NCBI GenBank assembly: GCA_046351655.1
Contig: JAXLYD010000072.1
Coordinates: 1 to 15,664 of the forward strand
Length of the DNA stretch: 15,664 nucleotides
DNA from: Polyangia bacterium
GTDB taxonomy: Bacteria > Myxococcota_A > Polyangia > Palsa-1104 > JAEUJZ01
Direction: 5' to 3'
Below, piece by piece: positions 1 through 15,664 of the stretch. The notes under the pieces are model-generated. The model was not told the origin of the DNA and ran no database searches. It saw only the letters and a list, made by a program, of their open reading frames with translations. Within the stretch, counting starts at the first letter, position 1, and each line of letters begins with the position of its first letter. A program made the translations under genes and the position numbers.

Positions 1-273
1 CTCACGCGGAATCCGTCCACCCTGAAAGTGGGACGCCGCCAGGAGCGTAGCATCGTCGACAAGCAGACTCCTTCCGTGCTTTTGCATCACATGACACGAA
101 GTACAAAAAGAAGTCTGTTTCGAGTTTTCGATATGTCTGTCGACACCAATCACGCTGGCAGTCACCGGCAGCACAAACAGACCTGTGAATGCCAGCGTCT
201 TGCTCGCGTGGGCTGGCCGAATCAGGATCAGCGCCGCGAGCAGAATCGCCAGTCCAAACAGTACCGCGAGCAT
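1..273 (-). CDS. NapC/NirT/NrfH-family membrane-anchored multiheme quinol-dehydrogenase cytochrome; N-terminal ~91 aa only, gene runs off the window edge
   Basis: Not in the ORF track because no stop lies in the window. Hand translation of the minus strand from ATG at 273-271: MLAVLFGLAILLAALILIRPAHASKTLAFTGLFVLPVTASVIGVDRHIENSKQTSFCTSCHVMQKHGRSLLVDD... Hydrophobic N-terminal anchor followed by the family-typical FCxSCHxM first-heme motif (FCTSCHVM). Same orientation as the upstream cytochrome genes and 46 nt after the cytochrome c start. Confidence 0.6.
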   Translation of the reverse strand, partial: MLAVLFGLAILLAALILIRPAHASKTLAFTGLFVLPVTASVIGVDRHIENSKQTSFCTSCHVMQKHGRSLLVDDATLLAASHFQGGRIPRE

Positions 274-318
274 CTTCCCTCCCTGAACGCTGCGCTGCTG
301 TATGCAAGTGAAGCGTGG

Positions 319-672
319 TTACTTCTTGGCCAGCTTGCGAACGAACATCACCAGACCATCGAGCTGCTCACCCGCGATCTCTGGCGTCGCTGGCATCTTC
401 AGTTCTTTGCCGTCCTTTTGCACGGTCTTGCCCTTGGTGATGCTGTCTTTCAGATCGGCGTCCTTGAAGCTTTCCTGCACTTTCGGATCGGTCAGATCGC
501 GCAGTGGACCACCGAACTTTTTGCGTGCTTGCTCGGTGTCGCCTTTGCCATCTTCGCCGTGACAAGATGCGCACTTTGCTTTCCACGCACGCTTGACACG
601 CGGATCATTTTCATCGGCAGAAGCCGACAGGGCAAACGACAGCAGCGAGGCAATGATGAGGACTTTGCGCAT
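319..672 (-). CDS. Monoheme class-I c-type cytochrome (c551/c552-like), secreted
   Basis: 117 aa. Signal peptide MRKVLIIASLLSFALSASA|DE. Single CASCH heme motif. Distal KMPATPE (Met as candidate sixth ligand). Lys-rich. GGGAGAA Shine-Dalgarno 6 nt upstream of ATG 672. Confidence 0.8.
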   Translation of the reverse strand: MRKVLIIASLLSFALSASADENDPRVKRAWKAKCASCHGEDGKGDTEQARKKFGGPLRDLTDPKVQESFKDADLKDSITKGKTVQKDGKELKMPATPEIAGEQLDGLVMFVRKLAKK

Positions 673-734
673 GATGTTCTCCCTACATCTTGTGTGTGAT
701 CGATGATTTGTTGTCGTCTATGCTTTGTGCAGCA

Positions 735-1796
735 CTACAGCGTGTGGCAGTAGCGACACATTCCGTTTCGCACGATCTCTTGACGGTCGTGTCGCTCCAT
801 CCATTCAGGCGGATGCGGATTCCCACCGAGTCCGCCGACCTTGTGACAGTCTACGCAGTTTGAGCGCGGACCTTGATCGTGGCAGCTTGCGCAGCTTGTG
901 ATGTTCCGTCGGGCTGCAAGACCATGGAACTGCGGCGTACCCGGAATGTTGAATCCCGACGGATGTGGGTTTCGCGGGTTGTCGCTGCGACCACTTACGC
1001 CCTGCTCTTTGTGGCAGTTTTCGCAGAAGCTCTGTCCGTGGCAGCGCAGACACGATGCCGGATCGGCGCGCGTTTCGATGCTGTGTCTGCCGATGAAGTC
1101 GCCGCGGTGAATCAGATCGCTGTCGGCGCGCTCTGGGAATTTCAGCTCAATCGGAGCGAACACCGTTTTGGCATGACAGTCGGCACAGAATGTCTGTTCA
1201 TGACAGGTCGCGCAGCTCTCTGGCGAGGATCGCGCCGGTCGAGCATGGCCCAGTACAAAGTTGCCGCGATGCGAAAACTGCGTGATCGGTTTCTGCGGAT
1301 AGCGGCGCAGATCCTTGTGACAGGTGCCGCAGCTTCCTTGCTCGTATTCCTGCTTGTGGGTATGGCAACCAAAGCACGACTCCATGGTCGGCGGCGTACC
1401 GGGTTGGCCTTTTTCCGACAGCGTCTTGTGGCAGCGGGTGCAGTCTTCTTTGGTCTGCTCGATGTGCTTGGCGTGCGACAGCTTCAGCGTCGATGGAGTC
1501 CGCCGATAGGAAGTCGGGCGAATCGGATCAGAATGACAGAATCCGCACTCGCCTTTCTTTTTGTTGTCTTCGTGGCATTCCAGACACTTTGACTCCTTGG
1601 GAAAGAAGTCCCCTTTCATGTCTTGCGCGTCGTAAATCGGTTCGTGACAGACCACGCAGTCGATCTTGGCTTTGCTGTGGACGCTGTGTGGAACCTTGAT
1701 CGTGTCGCCCCCGCCGATCTTGGCCCAGAATGTCGCACAGGCGACGGTAAATAGAACGCTGGCCAGCAAAAACCAGCGGAGGGCTCGGGCGCTCAT
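735..1796 (-). CDS. Periplasmic or membrane-anchored multiheme c-type cytochrome with 13 CxxCH motifs (doubled-CXXCH type)
   Basis: 353 aa. N-terminal hydrophobic segment (signal or anchor). 13 CxxCH: CVVCH, CLECH, CGFCH, CTRCH, CFGCH, CGTCH, CATCH, CADCH, CLRCH, CENCH, CASCH, CVDCH, CRYCH. Several occur as paired CxxCH-x(3-5)-FCxxCH units. Start ATG overlaps the upstream stop (ATGA at 1793-1796). Confidence 0.9.
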   Translation of the reverse strand: MSARALRWFLLASVLFTVACATFWAKIGGGDTIKVPHSVHSKAKIDCVVCHEPIYDAQDMKGDFFPKESKCLECHEDNKKKGECGFCHSDPIRPTSYRRTPSTLKLSHAKHIEQTKEDCTRCHKTLSEKGQPGTPPTMESCFGCHTHKQEYEQGSCGTCHKDLRRYPQKPITQFSHRGNFVLGHARPARSSPESCATCHEQTFCADCHAKTVFAPIELKFPERADSDLIHRGDFIGRHSIETRADPASCLRCHGQSFCENCHKEQGVSGRSDNPRNPHPSGFNIPGTPQFHGLAARRNITSCASCHDQGPRSNCVDCHKVGGLGGNPHPPEWMERHDRQEIVRNGMCRYCHTL

Positions 1797-3055
1797 TGCT
1801 GCACCTCACGGAAGACTTGCGTTGCGTTGTACGCGAGCTTTACGACAAACTCAACGCGCCTTTCCACAAACGGAGTCACGTCGGCAAAGCCTGTCGCCAC
1901 GATTCGGAAGCCGCGACCCAAGTTGCCTGCAACGGTTCCGGTCCCCGTAAACGAAAACGCTTGTCCGTTTATCGGTTGATCCAAAAAGTAACTGTTGGCA
2001 CCCAGCGTTACAAACCAAGCCGGAGTCAGCTTGTGGGTGCTGTAAAGCCGCGCTTGGACGTAGCCATTGTTTGGCAGTTTCAGTACGCGCAGCTCGCCGT
2101 TTAGCGTCGTGTGATCGCGCTGTCCCAGTGCGACTGTGGCCTTGATTCCGCCGCGCGCTCCGATTCCTTCCATGTTCACGACTGCGCGGAGATCGCCATA
2201 GAAACGGAGTCTGCGGATCGGCTTGAAAAAGACATTCCCGCCGACTTCATCGCGTGTCTCTTGCGAAAACACCGAAAAAATCGAGTTGAGCGGCAGAAAC
2301 AGATCGGGTGCTGTCCGACGATAATCGGCGCCGATCTGAAACATCAGATTGGGAATCCAGGTTGCTGCCACATCGGCTTCCGCAACCCTCGCTTCTGGAA
2401 TCGAATACAGCGTATATCCGGTCAGCGCGATCTGTTCATGGGGAACATAGCGTGCATCGACCGCGATGTCCTGACGGGCGGCGCGGCCTTCCCCCATCAC
2501 TTGGTGAAAAGACACCCCGACTTCGGTGTCCACGGAATGGCGGTAAAACATCCTGCCGCCGAACACCACGTCCCCGCGGCTGACCGAAAAACGCGGCGTG
2601 ACCGGAACGCCCCCGTACCCGCTGATCCCAAGTCCTTTGTAGATTTGCAGAGTCGCCGATCCACCGTCGAGCTGGGTGCTGCGCGCGGCCCCACCAAAGA
2701 CAAACTGACGACCCAGACGTACTTGCACCCTTTTTTTCCAGAAGCTGCCTTCCAGATAGCCAAGATCGATGTCTCCGGACCAGTACTCGTCACGGCCTAT
2801 GTCCAGTTGTACAGAGCCCCAGCCCGACATCACAATGTTGATGCTGTCGAAATAGGGGCGCTTGATCTGCGCTGTGACACCAAGCGATTGATAGACCGGA
2901 ACGACGGTGTGGATCTCTCCGTCCCGTGGGTCAGCACGCCCGGACAGCAGCGTCGATACATTGAATTCGACCGAGTCCGCACGCGCTACGGAAGCCAAAC
3001 ACAGCGCGCCGCACAGAATCGACCGCTTGAGTCTTTGATGGGACTTAGTTTCCAT
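1793..3055 (-). CDS. Outer-membrane beta-barrel (porin-like) component of a porin-cytochrome conduit
   Basis: 420 aa. Signal peptide ...CLASVARA|DS. Alternating hydrophobic/polar beta-strand patterns throughout (IALTGYTLYSI, YVQARLYST, WFVTLGANSYF, GFRIVATGF, EFVVKLAYN). G/Y/aromatic-rich with no Cys motifs. Sandwiched between multiheme cytochrome genes, with an 11-nt overlap upstream and a 4-nt overlap downstream. The ORF is certain; the porin role is an inference. Confidence 0.6.
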   Translation of the reverse strand: METKSHQRLKRSILCGALCLASVARADSVEFNVSTLLSGRADPRDGEIHTVVPVYQSLGVTAQIKRPYFDSINIVMSGWGSVQLDIGRDEYWSGDIDLGYLEGSFWKKRVQVRLGRQFVFGGAARSTQLDGGSATLQIYKGLGISGYGGVPVTPRFSVSRGDVVFGGRMFYRHSVDTEVGVSFHQVMGEGRAARQDIAVDARYVPHEQIALTGYTLYSIPEARVAEADVAATWIPNLMFQIGADYRRTAPDLFLPLNSIFSVFSQETRDEVGGNVFFKPIRRLRFYGDLRAVVNMEGIGARGGIKATVALGQRDHTTLNGELRVLKLPNNGYVQARLYSTHKLTPAWFVTLGANSYFLDQPINGQAFSFTGTGTVAGNLGRGFRIVATGFADVTPFVERRVEFVVKLAYNATQVFREVQQ

Positions 3056-4670
3056 CGGCGACTCCGTTTAGGTGCGTCGTGGTCAGGGCTCCCGGCGGAC
3101 CAGAAAAGAGAATCGTGCCGCTTGCGTCCATGGTCTTGGCGTGGCAGGTCACACAGTCGACAAGTCGCATGGTGGCGGTGTGGTTGGCATCTTTGGGCGG
3201 AATGCCGTGACATGATCCGCACGACGCTTGGTTCTCTGCGTTCCAGATCGGATTCCGATTCACCGTCGTGCTGGTGTCTGTCAGCAGCTTGCTGCCGCTG
3301 CCGTGACAGTACGTACTGGAACACTTGGCGGCTGCGCGATCCCACTTGGGACTGGCTCCTTCTCGATTGCTAAGCTGCGCCGCAAGCGAGGCCGGAAAGA
3401 TGGTGACACCTTGTCCGAACGCTTTGTGAAGGTTGCCGCTGCCCAGAAGTTGCAGGTCGTTGCGGTGGCATTCCGAGCACGCAATCGGAGCGCTCAGCTT
3501 GTGACTGGCATTGACGTGCGCTGCGTGTGCGCCGACGCTGACGAGGCTTGTATCGGTCTTCCGCAACAGATCCTGGAAAGGACTGCTGCCGCCAAATCCG
3601 TGGCAAGATGAGCACTGTCCTTTGCCATCGCCTGCATCGCTCTTTCCGTTTACGTGCAGACCCCCTGTGACAAAGTGTTTGGCATCGTCCACCGTGCGGT
3701 TGTGACAAAGCACGCAGCGGGTGATGCTTGGATCATGGCTCGCAGGGGGCGCGCCGTGACAGGTTCCGCAGATCGCTTGCGTGCTCGGTCCTGTCCACGT
3801 TGGCGTCGTATTCGCTGCATTGAGATCGCCGAGCACAGCACCATGACAGTAGACATTTGTGCACTGCTTGGTCCCGGCATCAAACAGCGGCGGACTTGTG
3901 CGATACATCGCGTAGGGAGTCGCACTGGCCAAGCTTCCAAATGCAATGATCGGAGGCGACGTGCGCAGGGTGTCATCGCTGTTAAACACATGCCCCGGAT
4001 CAAGCCAGGAGACACGCTTTGGATGGCACTCTGTACACGCGATTTGACGACCCAGTGAAGCGCCCGTTGCGTGCGCACGGTGGGCACTTGGCAGACGGGA
4101 ATGGCACGTATCGCAGGTGGTCACGCCTTGCGGATGACAGGTCAGGCACGACACCTTGACTTCGCCCCCTGTCAGGTCTTGACCGTGACAGCCGCTGCAC
4201 GCGCTGAGCTTGTAGTTTGCTTGCCGCAGCAGCGCACCGTGAAACTGCCCGTTTGGATCTTCGGGGTTTAGGATTCCGGCTTGGTGATAGATCGATCGAA
4301 CGTAGGACACACCACAGTCCACGATCCAGGTCCGCAGCGAATCACGGACCGCATCGGAAATGCGCTTGTGGGAATCCGATGTGGTGTCGCTCGCGATGAT
4401 CAAAAGAAGCCGGGAGTTTGCATCCCCAGCGACGGATCGAACAGGCTGGGAACCGCCTCCCAAGACGGACAGATAATCCGATGTATCAAGCCCACCCGCA
4501 GGTGCTGGGCCGCTGTGACAACTGCCACAGTTGTCTTTCATGATCTGTGCTACGTCGTCTTTCCAGCTTGTGCACTGCGTCCGCGTTCCTTGCGGAGTCC
4601 GCGCACTGCCGCAGCCGATGAGCAACATCACTGCACACAGCAGCGATGGATATCCAAGCACCCCGCCCAT
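3045..4670 (-). CDS. Lipoprotein multiheme c-type cytochrome (11 CxxCH + 2 CxxxxCH), OmcB-like family
   Basis: The track ORF 3045..4766 begins at GTG. The likely true start is ATG 4670 (M33), preceded by AAGGAG 8 nt upstream and only 5 nt after the TAG of the upstream gene. N-terminus MGGVLGYPSLLCAVMLLIGC with lipobox LIGC. CxxCH motifs: CGSCH, CSGCH, CLTCH, CDTCH, CTECH, CGTCH, CVLCH, CSSCH, CSECH, CGSCH, CVTCH. Two CxxxxCH motifs (CTNVYCHG, CSSTYCHG), each followed by a CxxCHG. Confidence 0.85.
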   Translation of the reverse strand: MGGVLGYPSLLCAVMLLIGCGSARTPQGTRTQCTSWKDDVAQIMKDNCGSCHSGPAPAGGLDTSDYLSVLGGGSQPVRSVAGDANSRLLLIIASDTTSDSHKRISDAVRDSLRTWIVDCGVSYVRSIYHQAGILNPEDPNGQFHGALLRQANYKLSACSGCHGQDLTGGEVKVSCLTCHPQGVTTCDTCHSRLPSAHRAHATGASLGRQIACTECHPKRVSWLDPGHVFNSDDTLRTSPPIIAFGSLASATPYAMYRTSPPLFDAGTKQCTNVYCHGAVLGDLNAANTTPTWTGPSTQAICGTCHGAPPASHDPSITRCVLCHNRTVDDAKHFVTGGLHVNGKSDAGDGKGQCSSCHGFGGSSPFQDLLRKTDTSLVSVGAHAAHVNASHKLSAPIACSECHRNDLQLLGSGNLHKAFGQGVTIFPASLAAQLSNREGASPKWDRAAAKCSSTYCHGSGSKLLTDTSTTVNRNPIWNAENQASCGSCHGIPPKDANHTATMRLVDCVTCHAKTMDASGTILFSGPPGALTTTHLNGVADGN

Positions 4671-4675
4671 CGCCG

Positions 4676-7105
4676 CTACTCCTTTTCGCGCAAGTAAGGA
4701 GGCTTGTACGGATTTGCGATGTTGTGGACTTTGCTGACAGAAAACTCCGCGCCTTCGCTGTGACACACCGAACAGGTTTCCACCGGCTTGCCCATCGGAT
4801 CGGTCCAGGTATTAAGAGCCGCATGTCCCGCTGCAGCAGAGGTATCGTGACAGCCCAGACACGCCGCGGTTCCGGCCTGTAGATAGGATGTGTTTTGGCA
4901 CTTTCCGGACACGCAGCTCTGTCCGATACCACAGGGGGCCGATGCAGAGCAGCTTGCGCCGGAGTCTCCGTGGCATTTTTTGCAGTTGCGAACATCTTGC
5001 GGAAACAGAATTTCCGAAAAGTCATTCGCAGTGTTCGAGTTGCCGATGTAGACAAGCGCGTTTGGTTTGACAAGACCACTGCGTTCCGCATAACCACCGA
5101 GCAGTCGCGCGAAGTGGGTGGAGTGAATCATCGCCGAAAACAGAATTGTCTGTCCGGGCGTCGGATCGACCGAGATCACACAGGTGTCCGCTTTTCCGTC
5201 GGCATTGGTGTCCTGACAAGTTTCCCAACCAGCGGCATTGCCACGACATTGGCTGCTCATCGTGCAGGCCAGACCGCGGCCCCCAACGATGCGATCGACA
5301 GCGCCAGCGGTGTGACAGATCGAACAGCCTTCCGCATCGCGACGACTACCGCCGTGCGCTTGCGTGACAACGTGGCAGCTATTGCAGGACTCTCGCTTGA
5401 TGACATGGCGCGGCTGAATCGCTTGTGATCCACCGACGCGGAAATCGACCAGTGCGCTGCCGACATCGCGGATCGATGTGCCTTTGTACGTCGTCGTTTC
5501 CACCACGTAGAGCCACGCGGAATAAGTTCCGGCGGGATTGGCCCGCGGCGTAAGTCCAGTCGTGTTCAGTGGCGTCTGTGCGTTCGCCGGCCAAGTCGTG
5601 GCCGGACTGTACGAATACACATTGCTCGCGGAATCAAACGTCAGCGTTCCCACCGTCTTGAGGCTCAGCGACGGATAAATCATCTGCCGATCGTTTGTCG
5701 GCCCACCAATCAGCAGCGTGGCAGACAGCGCAGAATTGGTCTTCAGATCGGTGATCGCGGCACCTGTTCCGTCCGCGACTTTGAAGCTGAGCTTGAATGT
5801 ATCGCCGACCATCATGGCGGCCATCGGACCCGATCCGCCGGATACCGTGACTTCGCTCAGCTGGACTTTGCGGACATGGGTGCGCGTCAGGATTTCGTGT
5901 TTGTCCGGAATCGGCGAAATGCCCGATGAGTCCGCGCTGTGGCACGTCGTACACTGCGCATCGTCTGTTTGCTTGGGATGCGTCGATGTTTCGCACAGCA
6001 GTGAGGCCGGATTGCACTTGGCCAGGCTGCTCTTGCTGGCGCAGTCGGCATCGACGGCACAAACGCCGGTGTACGTGCGGATTGGACTCAGCGTTCCGGT
6101 GTCAAAAAACAGTGCATCGTGACAAGCGCCGCAGGCCTGACGCGACGGCTTTTTCAGATAGCGATCGTCTTTGTGACACTTTACACAGTCTTTTTCCGCA
6201 TCAGGCATCGATGGGAATCCGACGTTTGTAAACAGCGGCAGGGTTGTATCCGCAGGAACGCCGTATTCTGGATGGGCGACGCCGGGGTTTGCCTGATGTT
6301 CACCGCGGTGCACACCATGGACTTTGCGCACCGTCGTGTTGGCACTGTATCCGTCCTGGTTGTGACAGACTTTGCAGCTTGCGATGGGGAATAGATCCAG
6401 CGACCAGTTTCCCAGCGGCGAAAATCCCGGCTCGATGTGATGCATGTACAGCTTGCCGGTCTCGGTTCCCTTGTGACAGTCGGCGCAGCTAGAAGACTGC
6501 GGGTCGCCCGATGCATAGGTTTCCACCGTCGCTGTGCCGATCTGAAAATCGAGCAGAGGGAATATCTGCTGCTGCTCATCTGCGGTCTTGGCCCACAGGG
6601 CAACCGTGTATGTTCCCGCTGCTTCACTTCCGATGGGGGCAAGCTGATACGTCAGCGATCCATCCGATTCCGTCGTCAGACCTGGTGCATTTGGGTTTGC
6701 GTAGGACGGATTCTTTAGGTTGATGTAGTGGTGCTGGCGATCCTTGGCAGTTCGATCGGTGACAGCATTGAGCAGCAGGTTCGCACTCTTGGTCGTGATT
6801 GCCCCGCGCGGACCCACGATGTACAGATTTGCGGTCCCAAGCTCCGACGGCGCGAGGAGGCGTCCACAGTCCGATCCGAGCTTCAGCGTGAGCTTGGGCG
6901 CTTCACCGGGCATGTAATAGGAACCCTGCGCCGGGGGCGAAAGCGCAAGCTCTGCTTTGAAACCGGGGCCGTTCGGATCGCACGCCACCGGATTCATGTC
7001 CGTGCTAGGAATCAGAGATCCGGAAGGACCGATGGGTCCGACGGGGCCTTCGCACGTTGCGAACATCAAGGCACACAGAGAGAGGAGTCTGCTGGTGAGC
7101 CGCAT
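4676..7105 (-). CDS. Outer-surface decaheme c-type cytochrome, MtrC/OmcA-like domain arrangement, probable lipoprotein
   Basis: 809 aa. Signal peptide MRLTSRLLSLCALMFATC (lipobox-like). About 200 heme-free residues, then 5 CxxCH (CADCH, CKVCH, CVKCH, CGACH, CTTCH). About 180 heme-free residues with a Cys cluster (CAVDADCASKSSLAKCNPASLLC), then 5 CxxCH (CNSCH, CSICH, CKKCH, CLGCH, CSVCH). First gene of the operon. Confidence 0.85.
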   Translation of the reverse strand: MRLTSRLLSLCALMFATCEGPVGPIGPSGSLIPSTDMNPVACDPNGPGFKAELALSPPAQGSYYMPGEAPKLTLKLGSDCGRLLAPSELGTANLYIVGPRGAITTKSANLLLNAVTDRTAKDRQHHYINLKNPSYANPNAPGLTTESDGSLTYQLAPIGSEAAGTYTVALWAKTADEQQQIFPLLDFQIGTATVETYASGDPQSSSCADCHKGTETGKLYMHHIEPGFSPLGNWSLDLFPIASCKVCHNQDGYSANTTVRKVHGVHRGEHQANPGVAHPEYGVPADTTLPLFTNVGFPSMPDAEKDCVKCHKDDRYLKKPSRQACGACHDALFFDTGTLSPIRTYTGVCAVDADCASKSSLAKCNPASLLCETSTHPKQTDDAQCTTCHSADSSGISPIPDKHEILTRTHVRKVQLSEVTVSGGSGPMAAMMVGDTFKLSFKVADGTGAAITDLKTNSALSATLLIGGPTNDRQMIYPSLSLKTVGTLTFDSASNVYSYSPATTWPANAQTPLNTTGLTPRANPAGTYSAWLYVVETTTYKGTSIRDVGSALVDFRVGGSQAIQPRHVIKRESCNSCHVVTQAHGGSRRDAEGCSICHTAGAVDRIVGGRGLACTMSSQCRGNAAGWETCQDTNADGKADTCVISVDPTPGQTILFSAMIHSTHFARLLGGYAERSGLVKPNALVYIGNSNTANDFSEILFPQDVRNCKKCHGDSGASCSASAPCGIGQSCVSGKCQNTSYLQAGTAACLGCHDTSAAAGHAALNTWTDPMGKPVETCSVCHSEGAEFSVSKVHNIANPYKPPYLREKE

Positions 7106-7354
7106 GGATATTAGTCTCTTAATGATGATGATAATTCCTCGCGGAACGGAATGGGAAGCTGATAGTCGATCGAATGCTCACGAAAACGTGTCCGCAATCG
7201 GCAAGTGGCTTCTCGATCAGGGTGCAGAATCTAACGCTAGGATCGATTTGAGGGGGCTGTCCGGGGCCGAAATGTGCGCAAACGTCGTCGAAAGATCCGC
7301 TGCTGTGGACATCCTCTTGCCATTTCCGAGAAAATGCAAAAGGGGGTCGAAAGT
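7106..7354. promoter_or_regulatory. Divergent promoter region between the cytochrome operon (-) and the EF-hand gene (+)
   Basis: 249-bp non-coding gap between divergent starts. Contains an AT-richer patch (ttaatgatgatgataatt, 7118-7136), the 8-bp palindrome TCGATCGA and GATC-containing inverted repeats. No confident -35/-10 assignment. Confidence 0.35.
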
Positions 7355-7918
7355 ATGCAGAGCATTTTGTCACCGCTACAGGTTCGCAAGTTCTCCACGC
7401 TGTTTTCCCTGCTAGACACAAATGGAGACGGATGTCTTTCGGAAGCAGACTTTCGCGAGCAAGCGCGGCGGATTTTAGAAGCGTTTGGTCTTGCGCAAGA
7501 TGAACGTCGAGCACGGCTTCTGTTTGAGAGCCGCAGCGAGCTGTTTCATCGTCTGATTTCCGGTGCAGACAAAGACCGCAGCGGAACCGTTTCCTTGGAT
7601 GAGTTTCTGCGCTATTTCGAACGGCAAATTCTCGCGCATCGGGCTGCTGGGGTTGCATCACCGTGGCTTGTGCAGTCGTGTCGTGATGTGATCGAACTGA
7701 TCGATCAAGATCGCAACGAAACCATCAGCGAAGCCGAGTATGCGCAGCTTCTGCGTGCGATGGGAAGCGATGCGGACCCGCATGTAAACTTTGCCAAGCT
7801 GGATCGGGATGGCGATGGAAAACTGACGTTAAAAGAAATGGTGGCGCTGTCGCTGGAATTTATGACCAGCGACGATCCAGATGCGCCAGGGAACTTCTTT
7901 TTCTGTGGGAAGGTGTAA
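7355..7918 (+). CDS. EF-hand calcium-binding protein with four EF-hand loops
   Basis: Track ORF 7274 starts at GTG. Best start is ATG 7355, with AAGGGGG 8 nt upstream. Loops: DTNGDGCLSEAD, DKDRSGTVSLDE, DQDRNETISEAE, DRDGDGKLTLKE. No signal peptide. Confidence 0.8.
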   Translation: MQSILSPLQVRKFSTLFSLLDTNGDGCLSEADFREQARRILEAFGLAQDERRARLLFESRSELFHRLISGADKDRSGTVSLDEFLRYFERQILAHRAAGVASPWLVQSCRDVIELIDQDRNETISEAEYAQLLRAMGSDADPHVNFAKLDRDGDGKLTLKEMVALSLEFMTSDDPDAPGNFFFCGKV

Positions 7919-15397: not shown

Positions 15398-15664
15398 ATG
15401 AGCCCTTGTTCGCCGTTTCCTTGGACGTGGCGTCGGGCGGCGTCGCTTGTGATTCCGCCCCAATGCAGCGTCGCTGGCATCTGCGCCTGGCTGTGCTGTG
15501 CTTTGCCGATGGCCCATGCGGAGTCGTCCTTTGACGTGGTCGTGCGGGCCGAAGATCCGGCGCTGCGTGCGGAAGTCAGCAAGCAGACGCTCCACACCGA
15601 AGAGCTGCGCAAGATGCCCGGAACGCTCGGCGATCCGCTGCGTGCCATCGAGAACCTGCCGGGG
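15398..15664 (+). CDS. Probable TonB-dependent outer-membrane receptor, N-terminus only (signal peptide, TonB-box-like segment, start of plug); continues beyond the window
   Basis: Hand translation of the frame whose codons start at positions ≡2 mod 3 (reading through 15662-15664). After the TAG at 15383-15385 it reads M(15398)SPCSPFPWTWRRAASLVIPPQCSVAGICAWLCCALPMAHA|ESSFDVVVRAEDPALRAEVSKQTLHTEELRKMPGTLGDPLRAIENLPG. The DVVV TonB-box-like stretch and ...LRAIENLPG resemble the conserved plug-entry motif of TonB-dependent receptors. Start is ambiguous (ATG 15398, GTG 15470 or ATG 15509). Confidence 0.45.
   Translation, partial: MSPCSPFPWTWRRAASLVIPPQCSVAGICAWLCCALPMAHAESSFDVVVRAEDPALRAEVSKQTLHTEELRKMPGTLGDPLRAIENLPG

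Follow-up and report, generated by a model that had tools for sequence, protein, structure and literature searches.

A 15,664-nt stretch (positions 1 to 15,664, referred to as the window) of the contig JAXLYD010000072.1 of a Polyangia bacterium (assembly GCA_046351655.1) carries six consecutive genes, g1 to g6, that probably encode a porin–cytochrome conduit across the outer membrane, together with its inner-membrane feed, through which electrons would flow outward. This view is based on the families and folds of the parts, the haem ligands, the lipoboxes, the gene junctions, and the conservation of the gene set with interchangeable inner-membrane modules. Such conduits are defined by a periplasmic-side multihaem cytochrome, an integral beta-barrel and at least one redox lipoprotein (PMC6148476), and all three elements are present in the operon. 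In the pathway proposed, the membrane-anchored NapC/NirT-type tetrahaem protein g6 would oxidise menaquinol, and the monohaem cytochrome g5 would probably carry the electrons over the periplasm. These would then enter g4, lipid-anchored at the inner face of the outer membrane and threaded into the g3 barrel, and would be passed on the cell surface to the lipoprotein cytochromes g2 (13 haems) and g1 (ten haems). The latter two would reduce insoluble or large acceptors, namely Fe(III) or Mn(IV) oxides, humic substances, electrodes or partner cells. From the features listed we infer the physical complex, the occupant of the barrel, the surface exposure and the outward direction. An earlier, sequence-only reading of this DNA had seen in it the parts list for moving electrons from the quinone pool across the periplasm and the outer membrane, and all in-silico tests run supported that core.

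Organisation of the operon

All genes of the operon lie on the minus strand, in agreement with the co-orientation claimed earlier. Gene g1 (7105-4676) encodes an 809-aa decahaem lipoprotein cytochrome with ten CXXCH motifs, and g2 (4670-3045, with its ATG at 4670) a 541-aa lipoprotein cytochrome with 11 CXXCH and two CXXXXCH motifs. They are followed by g3 (3055-1793), which encodes a 420-aa outer-membrane beta-barrel with a signal peptide and no haem motifs, and by g4 (1796-735), a 353-aa c7-type cytochrome with 13 CXXCH motifs that is the presumed barrel insert and a probable lipoprotein. Next come g5 (672-319), a 117-aa secreted cytochrome with a single CXXCH, and g6 (273-1), of which only the 5' part (91 aa) is contained in the window. 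The sequence-only reading had counted seven genes; there are six, five in 319-7105 plus the partial g6. Its total of 37 haem motifs was reproduced on recounting (10+13+13+1 = 37). Chance alone would, on a rough estimate, yield fewer than 0.01 CXXCH motifs in about 1,800 residues of such composition.

The junctions between the genes are of the translational-coupling type. At the g1/g2 junction (AAGGAG-TAG-cggcg-ATG), a gap of 5 nt is preceded by a Shine-Dalgarno site located within the end of g1, g2 and g3 overlap by 11 nt (3045-3055), g3 and g4 share an ATGA overlap (1793-1796), and 62 nt (673-734) separate g4 from g5; these four were re-read exactly as first described. The gap between g5 and g6 is of 45 nt, with the g6 ATG 46 nt past the final base of g5, so that the earlier wording, which placed the NapC-type gene 46 nt after the "start" of the cytochrome c gene, should have said "end". 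GGAG-type Shine-Dalgarno sites are found upstream of each gene from g2 to g6, and all open reading frames (ORFs) of the operon are intact. In the relative L002, where the operon is complete, the 200-aa NapC-type gene is its last; beyond a gap of 300 nt comes a cyclase gene that is unrelated. To judge by their spacing and conserved synteny, g1 to g6 are probably co-transcribed. The intergenic region between g1 and the divergent EF-hand gene (7106-7333) holds no ORF with a family match and presumably contains the operon promoter and the 5' leader. The Rfam scan was empty, and repeats in the region upstream of the operon were unremarkable.

The surface cytochromes g1 and g2

Protein g1 is a homologue of MtrC, OmcA, MtrF and UndA, and of nothing else in the PDB, by sequence profile as well as by fold. 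A profile built from 61 homologues and run against all PDB sequences matched only MtrF (4e-25), OmcA (6.5e-15), UndA and MtrC. The AlphaFold2 model (predicted local distance difference test score, pLDDT, 88.7; predicted template modelling score, pTM, 0.84) shows a four-domain layout, with beta domains at residues 49-190 and 415-557 and pentahaem domains at 200-410 and 570-809, and the CXXCH motifs are arranged accordingly as 5+5 (207, 244, 307, 325, 385 / 574, 594, 708, 749, 778). When this model was compared with the PDB by Foldseek, the top 10 matches were all MtrC or OmcA, with full-length alignments and E values from 5e-17 to 5e-14, and every match after these had E >1e-5. Moreover, g1 scored 105.8 bits against the Pfam model PF22113 for MtrC/MtrF domain II/IV (cut-off 30) and 184.8 bits against the NCBIfam model TIGR03507 for OmcA/MtrC, below the cut-off of 209.3. 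Profile search, Foldseek and the 5+5 four-domain model therefore bear out the MtrC-like decahaem with MtrC/OmcA-like topology that had been proposed. Exactly ten CXXCH motifs are present in 119 of the 120 relatives listed, and the non-motif histidines are invariant. The lipobox (MFATC-EGP) has a cysteine followed by EGP that is conserved among homologues, and g1 is predicted to be exposed at the cell surface.

Two further features of g1 were observed. Inside the two pentahaem domains, and outside the haem motifs, three cysteine quartets (C349/355/364/371, C614/620/630/642 and C719/725/731/736; residues 349-371, 614-642 and 719-736) are invariant in the 61 homologues and probably form disulfide-stapled inserts; Shewanella MtrC is not known to contain four-cysteine inserts of this kind. 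In addition, a collagen-like (G-X-Y)n run starts right after the lipobox cysteine (residues 20-31, window 7013-7048 (-)). In the window it has only four triplets, whereas about three quarters of the 120 g1 homologues listed have an unbroken run of 8-22. In these homologues (P0256-P0373) the run usually begins C-E-G-P-R-G-P-A-G, and it gives weak matches to the Pfam Collagen family and to Scl/Lcl collagen-like adhesins. Such a run may form an extended or trimeric stalk. In the literature searched, nothing was found that links collagen-like repeats to multihaem cytochromes.

The second lipoprotein cytochrome, g2 (lipobox LLIGC-GS), matched TIGR01904 with 76.2 bits (cut-off 27) and PF09698, in two copies, with 46.5 bits (cut-off 21.7), and contains the GSu_C4xC__C2xCH domain with the CxxxxCH/CxxCH motifs of Geobacter. 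Twelve core motifs, consisting of ten CXXCH and both C-x-x-x-Y-C-H, are kept in seven of seven orthologues. The N-terminal haem domain is optional, being present in four of the seven, and the orthologue in locus L013 is weakly matched by PSCyt1. Like g1, g2 is predicted to be exposed on the surface. Its first label, "OmcB-like", is only an analogy that holds by role, that of a multihaem lipoprotein cytochrome adjoining a barrel. Outer-membrane redox lipoproteins, often with atypical CX3-15CH motifs, are a feature of Pcc/Ext systems, to which g2 and g1 correspond with their lipoboxes.

The outer-membrane barrel g3 and its partner cytochrome g4

For g3, structure prediction gave a confident model of an outer-membrane barrel with about 22 strands and no plug, distinct from MtrB. 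The model (pLDDT 87.5) has 22-23 strands and uses nearly the whole 420-aa chain, and therefore leaves no plug domain. MtrB/PioB-type barrels, with at least 26 strands in about 650-700 aa, are larger, and g3 falls instead with the Pcc/Ext-type barrels (about 18-22 strands), in line with the 18-22 strands reported for Pcc porins (PMC4245776). The earlier description of a Pcc-sized rather than MtrB-sized barrel is thus upheld by the structure model. By standard barrel geometry, 22 strands would give an estimated Cα diameter of about 40 Å, so that the pore would be narrower than that of the 26-strand MtrB, yet wide enough in principle for a haem wire.

No family in Pfam or NCBIfam matched g3, and a Pfam scan of eight distant members of the barrel family likewise matched none. 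The family is large, with 983 representatives at 50% clustering (E ≤1e-3), 276 of them at E ≤1e-30. Among the homologues listed, those bearing names come from metagenome-assembled genomes (MAGs) and are called "hypothetical protein" only, with one generic mis-annotation.

The gene for g4 lies immediately after the barrel gene in all ten loci that have g4, overlapping it by 1-4 nt in nine of them and separated by 65 nt in L009. The protein scored 55.4 bits against PF14522 (cut-off 24.8), and PpcA was its best PDB sequence match; no match was obtained with TIGR03508, the model for MtrA/DmsE decahaem cytochromes. With its 13 haems, g4 corresponds to the adjacent periplasmic-side multihaem cytochrome (5-15 haems) of Pcc/Ext systems. 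Exactly 13 motifs are found in 119 of 120 listed homologues. The lipobox Cys20, 13 non-motif histidines and Met138 are each kept in at least 95% of 121 sequences, which gives 14 conserved candidate distal ligands (13 His and Met138). Because the lipobox cysteine is conserved, g4 probably has a lipid anchor. Of the "13-haem periplasmic cytochrome" described before, the haem number stands and a free periplasmic location is improbable.

The monohaem cytochrome g5 and the inner-membrane feed

Protein g5 is a secreted monohaem cytochrome c of class I, probably with a methionine ligand. It scored above cut-off against both PF00034 (35.5 bits) and PF13442 (33.5 bits), has the haem motif CASCH and a candidate Met ligand in ...KMP..., and found its best PDB matches among small soluble c-type cytochromes. 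An orthologue is present throughout L001-L009. MtoD was considered as a possible relative and rejected, as its structure (4xxl) was matched with E 0.69 only.

The window fragment of g6 has an N-terminal hydrophobic segment, a transmembrane segment followed by CTSCH, and scored 19.8 bits against PF03264, under the cut-off of 24.1, a shortfall due to its truncation at the window edge. Its full-length orthologue in L002 (200 aa, 79% identical) reached 38.6 bits and covered profile positions 3-167 of 174. On these grounds, g6 is identified by sequence as the start of a membrane-anchored NapC/NirT/NrfH-type tetrahaem quinol dehydrogenase. All six orthologues examined (L001, L002, L003, L004, L006 and L008) combine three CXXCH motifs with a fourth of the form CX4CH; the expectation of four haem motifs, typical for NapC-type proteins, is therefore correct in number, with the fourth being CX4CH and not CXXCH. 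This fourth motif reads C[IV][ST]K[DG]CH, CVSGGCH or CIKSGCH, is kept down to 43% identity, and marks a distinct NapC/NirT-type subfamily. Proteins of the g6 type remained far under the cut-offs of the NCBIfam equivalogs NrfH (41 bits, cut-off 134), NapC (32, cut-off 311) and TorC (21, cut-off 478), and these three identities were ruled out.

The inner-membrane partner is of the NapC type in the window, L001-L004, L006 and L008, and other proteins take this place elsewhere. In L007 the inner-membrane set (1616-4500 (-)) comprises a Rieske protein, a cytochrome b and an octahaem protein, and in L013 an inner-membrane quinol module (16482-18496) stands beside the conduit genes. In L009 the conduit genes are adjoined by genes for a CbcL-like fusion of 13 haems with a b-type membrane domain and for an ImcH-like protein with three transmembrane segments, one CX3CH and five CXXCH motifs (2228-4513 (-) and 5393-6871 (+)). 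The features of both agree with the published signatures, and ImcH homologues are so far known only from Fe(III) reducers (PMC6295460). This distribution suggests that the inner-membrane feed has been exchanged as a module among relatives.

Conservation of the gene set

The closest relatives of the locus are four Myxococcales/Polyangia MAG contigs (L001-L004) with an identical six-gene order. Order and junctions are thus shared by four independent MAG assemblies, and an identical g1 was recovered in an independent sequencing run. Close relatives come from a membrane-bioreactor MAG and from other metagenomes. Genes g2, g3 and g4 also occur together in six distant loci (L005-L009 and L013; 36-57% identity, 64-74% GC), where identities are 43-55% for the barrel, 36-48% for g2, 50-57% for g4 and 32-47% for g5. 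A g1 orthologue is found in L005-L008 (45-59% identical) and in L013, and L009 has two more divergent MtrC-family proteins in its place. In all nine loci whose sequence covers the upstream region, the barrel is accompanied by MtrC-family surface lipoproteins. The gene order is permuted in L005, L009 and L013. Distant loci with g2 ahead of the barrel gene keep the 11-nt g2/g3 overlap, which measures 14 nt in L009.

The identities of g1 to g4 rise and fall in parallel across loci, and we therefore take the gene set to be co-inherited. In this comparison the MtrC-type cap and the small barrel appear as an old co-inherited unit rather than a recent splice; the suggestion that the components are mixed in origin finds no support as a recent event. 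The conduit cluster is widespread in Myxococcota.

Homologues of g1 with a collagen-like run were also found as orphan genes in Anaeromyxobacter oryzae (AP025591.1, L010 10001-12490) and in an Anaeromyxobacter sp. MAG (L012 8001-10418).

Weighing the outward conduit against other explanations

Several observations weigh against a conduit with outward flow. Lipoboxes are found on all three multihaem cytochromes (g1, g2 and g4), and therefore the occupant of the barrel is ambiguous among the three. The g3 profile found nothing among PDB sequences, even at E ≤10, and shows no similarity to MtrB. Promoter and terminator consensus scans of the operon region, uninformative as to co-transcription, gave matches at chance level only, including a sigma-70-like match upstream of g1 (7157-7128 (-)) that is no better than chance. 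The two Anaeromyxobacter homologues of g1 are 48-50% identical and have no barrel or multihaem neighbour; because they stand alone, the MtrC-like cap is not always encoded beside its presumed conduit. One of them belongs to A. oryzae, the only named isolate matched, and has no barrel beside it. The organism itself is of an uncultured MAG lineage. As for direction, class I cytochromes with His/Met ligation are usually high-potential, and a g5 of this type would suit an inward, oxidase-directed chain no less well than an outward chain. Moreover, Mtr-type conduits are known to be reversible (PMC6295460).

That electrons move inward through this conduit, or both ways, is in our view unlikely. They would then be taken from extracellular Fe(II), Mn(II), reduced humics, minerals or partner cells, and either g5 would deliver them to a terminal oxidase or bc complex, or g6 would pass them uphill to the quinone pool. 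An inward route of this kind has been proposed for MtoAB-MtoD-CymA in Sideroxydans, and the pairing of g5 with g6 mirrors that of MtoD with CymA, although g5 has no specific similarity to MtoD. Homologues of CymA and CbcL are found in both reducers and oxidisers (PMC6295460), whereas the ImcH-like gene in the L009 cluster belongs to a family known only from reducers. Inward flow would also be in keeping with g5 orthologues in every locus, more constant than g6, with the Rieske or cytochrome b genes that adjoin the cluster in L005, L007 and L013, and with the hemerythrin/protoglobin sensors or cytochrome bd genes near it in L005, L009 and the P0090 locus. We favour outward flow because the known iron-oxidising conduits have no MtrC-type surface cytochrome (preprint 10.1101/2022.03.26.485925), while two surface cytochromes are predicted here, and because of the ImcH-like gene in one relative.

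Explanations other than a conduit are, taken together, improbable. One of them, which we regard as very unlikely, does without a transmembrane wire: the barrel would be a diffusion porin or a device for lipoprotein export or anchoring, and the cytochromes would act as a periplasmic or envelope redox buffer, or as reductants of a soluble substrate coming in via the pore. The lack of any sequence link between g3 and a conduit barrel would fit this, and yet a 22-strand barrel of 420 aa leaves no residues for a plug or constriction loop, g4 comes straight after the barrel gene wherever it is found and overlaps it in all such loci but one, and MtrC-family surface lipoproteins accompany the barrel in 9 of 9 loci that cover the upstream region. 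NrfH is the best-scoring NCBIfam model for g6, but at 41 bits against a cut-off of 134, and the Pfam and NCBIfam scans found no catalytic subunit of the NrfA, HAO or molybdoenzyme type in or beside the operon. Nitrite or hydroxylamine reductase identity was rejected on the same scans; the sequence-only reading had itself named cytochromes matching these families as the case that would speak against it, and no such match was obtained. Another explanation, that the genes are merely adjacent and form no functional unit, being separate transcripts, decayed genes or an assembly artefact, we consider extremely unlikely. The promoter and terminator scans point neither way on it and g6 is cut by the window edge, but the ORFs are intact, the haem motifs and ligands are conserved, Shine-Dalgarno sites and overlaps mark the junctions, order and junctions are alike in four independent MAG assemblies, and the identical g1 came from a separate sequencing run.

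Neighbouring genes

An EF-hand calcium-binding protein with four EF-hands is encoded divergently from g1 (window 7334-7918 (+)). This neighbour recurs in L002 and L011 and may be a regulator or a mere bystander gene. It is followed by a bacterial homologue of the eukaryotic major vault protein (MVP; window 8123-10186 (-)), which is recognised by the models MVP shoulder, Vault_3 and Vault_4 and aligns with MVP structures from the repeat domains through the cap helix (E 1e-21). A separate 256-aa ORF with weak MVP-repeat similarity (E about 0.02) precedes it (window 10288-11058 (-)), so that the vault gene appears to be split in two; this two-ORF arrangement is conserved in L001 and L003. In L002 (2333-3586 (-) and 3515-4984 (+)), a tyrosine-recombinase (integrase-like) gene replaces the N-terminal part of the vault gene and a truncated MVP ORF is left; an insertion seems to have taken place here, close upstream of the conduit operon. 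Further on, the window holds two paralogous cysteine-rich lipoproteins of about 560 aa (11232-12902 (-) and 13136-14848 (-)), 54% identical by tblastn through L001. They have an N-terminal DxSxS MIDAS/VWA-like motif and weak matches to a "MIDAS family adhesin" model (41-44 bits, cut-off 700); no other family matched them.

Implications

The usual view of Polyangia myxobacteria is of aerobic predators and degraders. A complete and conserved outer-membrane conduit in this group, if true, would imply respiration of minerals, humics or electrodes, or electron uptake. The gene set also shows the MtrC/OmcA fold to be independent of the MtrAB pair, having here a small, unrelated barrel family as its long-standing partner. 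That family, with about 1,000 clusters at 50% identity and absent from Pfam and NCBIfam, could serve as a new annotation marker in surveys of extracellular electron transfer. The compact conduit, with its 420-aa barrel and 353-aa insert, would moreover lend itself to structural comparison with MtrCAB. As for the collagen-like stalk, if true, it would speculatively be a new mode of presenting a terminal reductase. A wider proposal, which is possible although we hold it with considerable doubt, is a Myxococcota-wide conduit in which all multihaem cytochromes are lipid-anchored, the cap is carried away from the outer membrane on a collagen-like stalk, whose possible triple helix would make it a trimeric, extended "lollipop" reaching through LPS or EPS, and the inner-membrane module (NapC-type, bc-type, CbcL-like or ImcH-like) is freely exchangeable.

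Comparison with known systems

It has been mentioned in passing that genomes of Geobacter and Anaeromyxobacter have genes annotated as MtrC, and that Myxococcota MAGs give "MtrC" matches; in the literature searched, no description of the conserved g1-g6 cluster was found. The cluster's predicted surface decahaem lipoprotein with the MtrC four-domain fold, the NapC/NirT-family quinol dehydrogenase as inner-membrane entry and the overall pathway logic are shared with Shewanella MtrCAB and CymA. The barrels differ: MtrB has 26 strands in about 650-700 aa, whereas g3 has about 22 strands in 420 aa and no sequence similarity to it. Likewise, the insert of MtrCAB is a decahaem of the DmsE/MtrA family, whereas the candidate insert g4 is a 13-haem c7-type predicted lipoprotein, and the operon adds the 13-haem predicted surface lipoprotein g2. 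Protein g1 itself differs from its Shewanella counterparts in scoring under the NCBIfam cut-off (184.8 vs 209.3), in being about 140-180 residues longer and in its three extra four-cysteine inserts. Like Sideroxydans MtoA-MtoB-MtoD-CymA, the operon places a NapC/NirT-type tetrahaem protein and a class I monohaem cytochrome c alongside a barrel–cytochrome pair. In contrast, Mto has no surface cytochrome, its pair is of the MtrA/MtrB family, and g5 has no specific relation to MtoD.

Geobacter OmaB-OmbB-OmcB and ExtABCD share with the operon the three defining elements, a small barrel (about 18-22 strands), a c7-type polyhaem barrel partner, two outer lipoprotein cytochromes and atypical CX4CH motifs on an outer cytochrome. 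ExtABCD has a 12-haem periplasmic cytochrome, an 18-strand barrel and two lipoprotein cytochromes. Unlike the Geobacter systems, the operon has a barrel partner with a conserved lipobox and itself encodes a NapC-type quinol dehydrogenase and a monohaem cytochrome c, and its cap, a decahaem of the MtrC/OmcA fold, is absent from the five G. sulfurreducens conduit clusters described (PMC6148476). Within the same phylum, the "group IV" Pcc of Anaeromyxobacter pairs a porin with a cytochrome of 338-344 aa and 12-14 haems (Shi et al. 2014, PMC4245776); compared by size and haem number, the operon likewise has, directly after its barrel gene, one for a cytochrome with about 13 haems in about 350 aa. 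The Anaeromyxobacter Pcc clusters were reported without outer-membrane cytochromes (PMC4245776), whereas in the operon two are translationally linked to the pair; the g1 homologue of Anaeromyxobacter is, unlike here, encoded elsewhere as an orphan. Overall, the operon is not MtrCAB, as g3 lies outside the MtrB range and g4 gives no MtrA match. The best-supported view is that it works like a Pcc/Ext conduit, with which it agrees in every testable class feature, the barrel being likened by size and number of strands.

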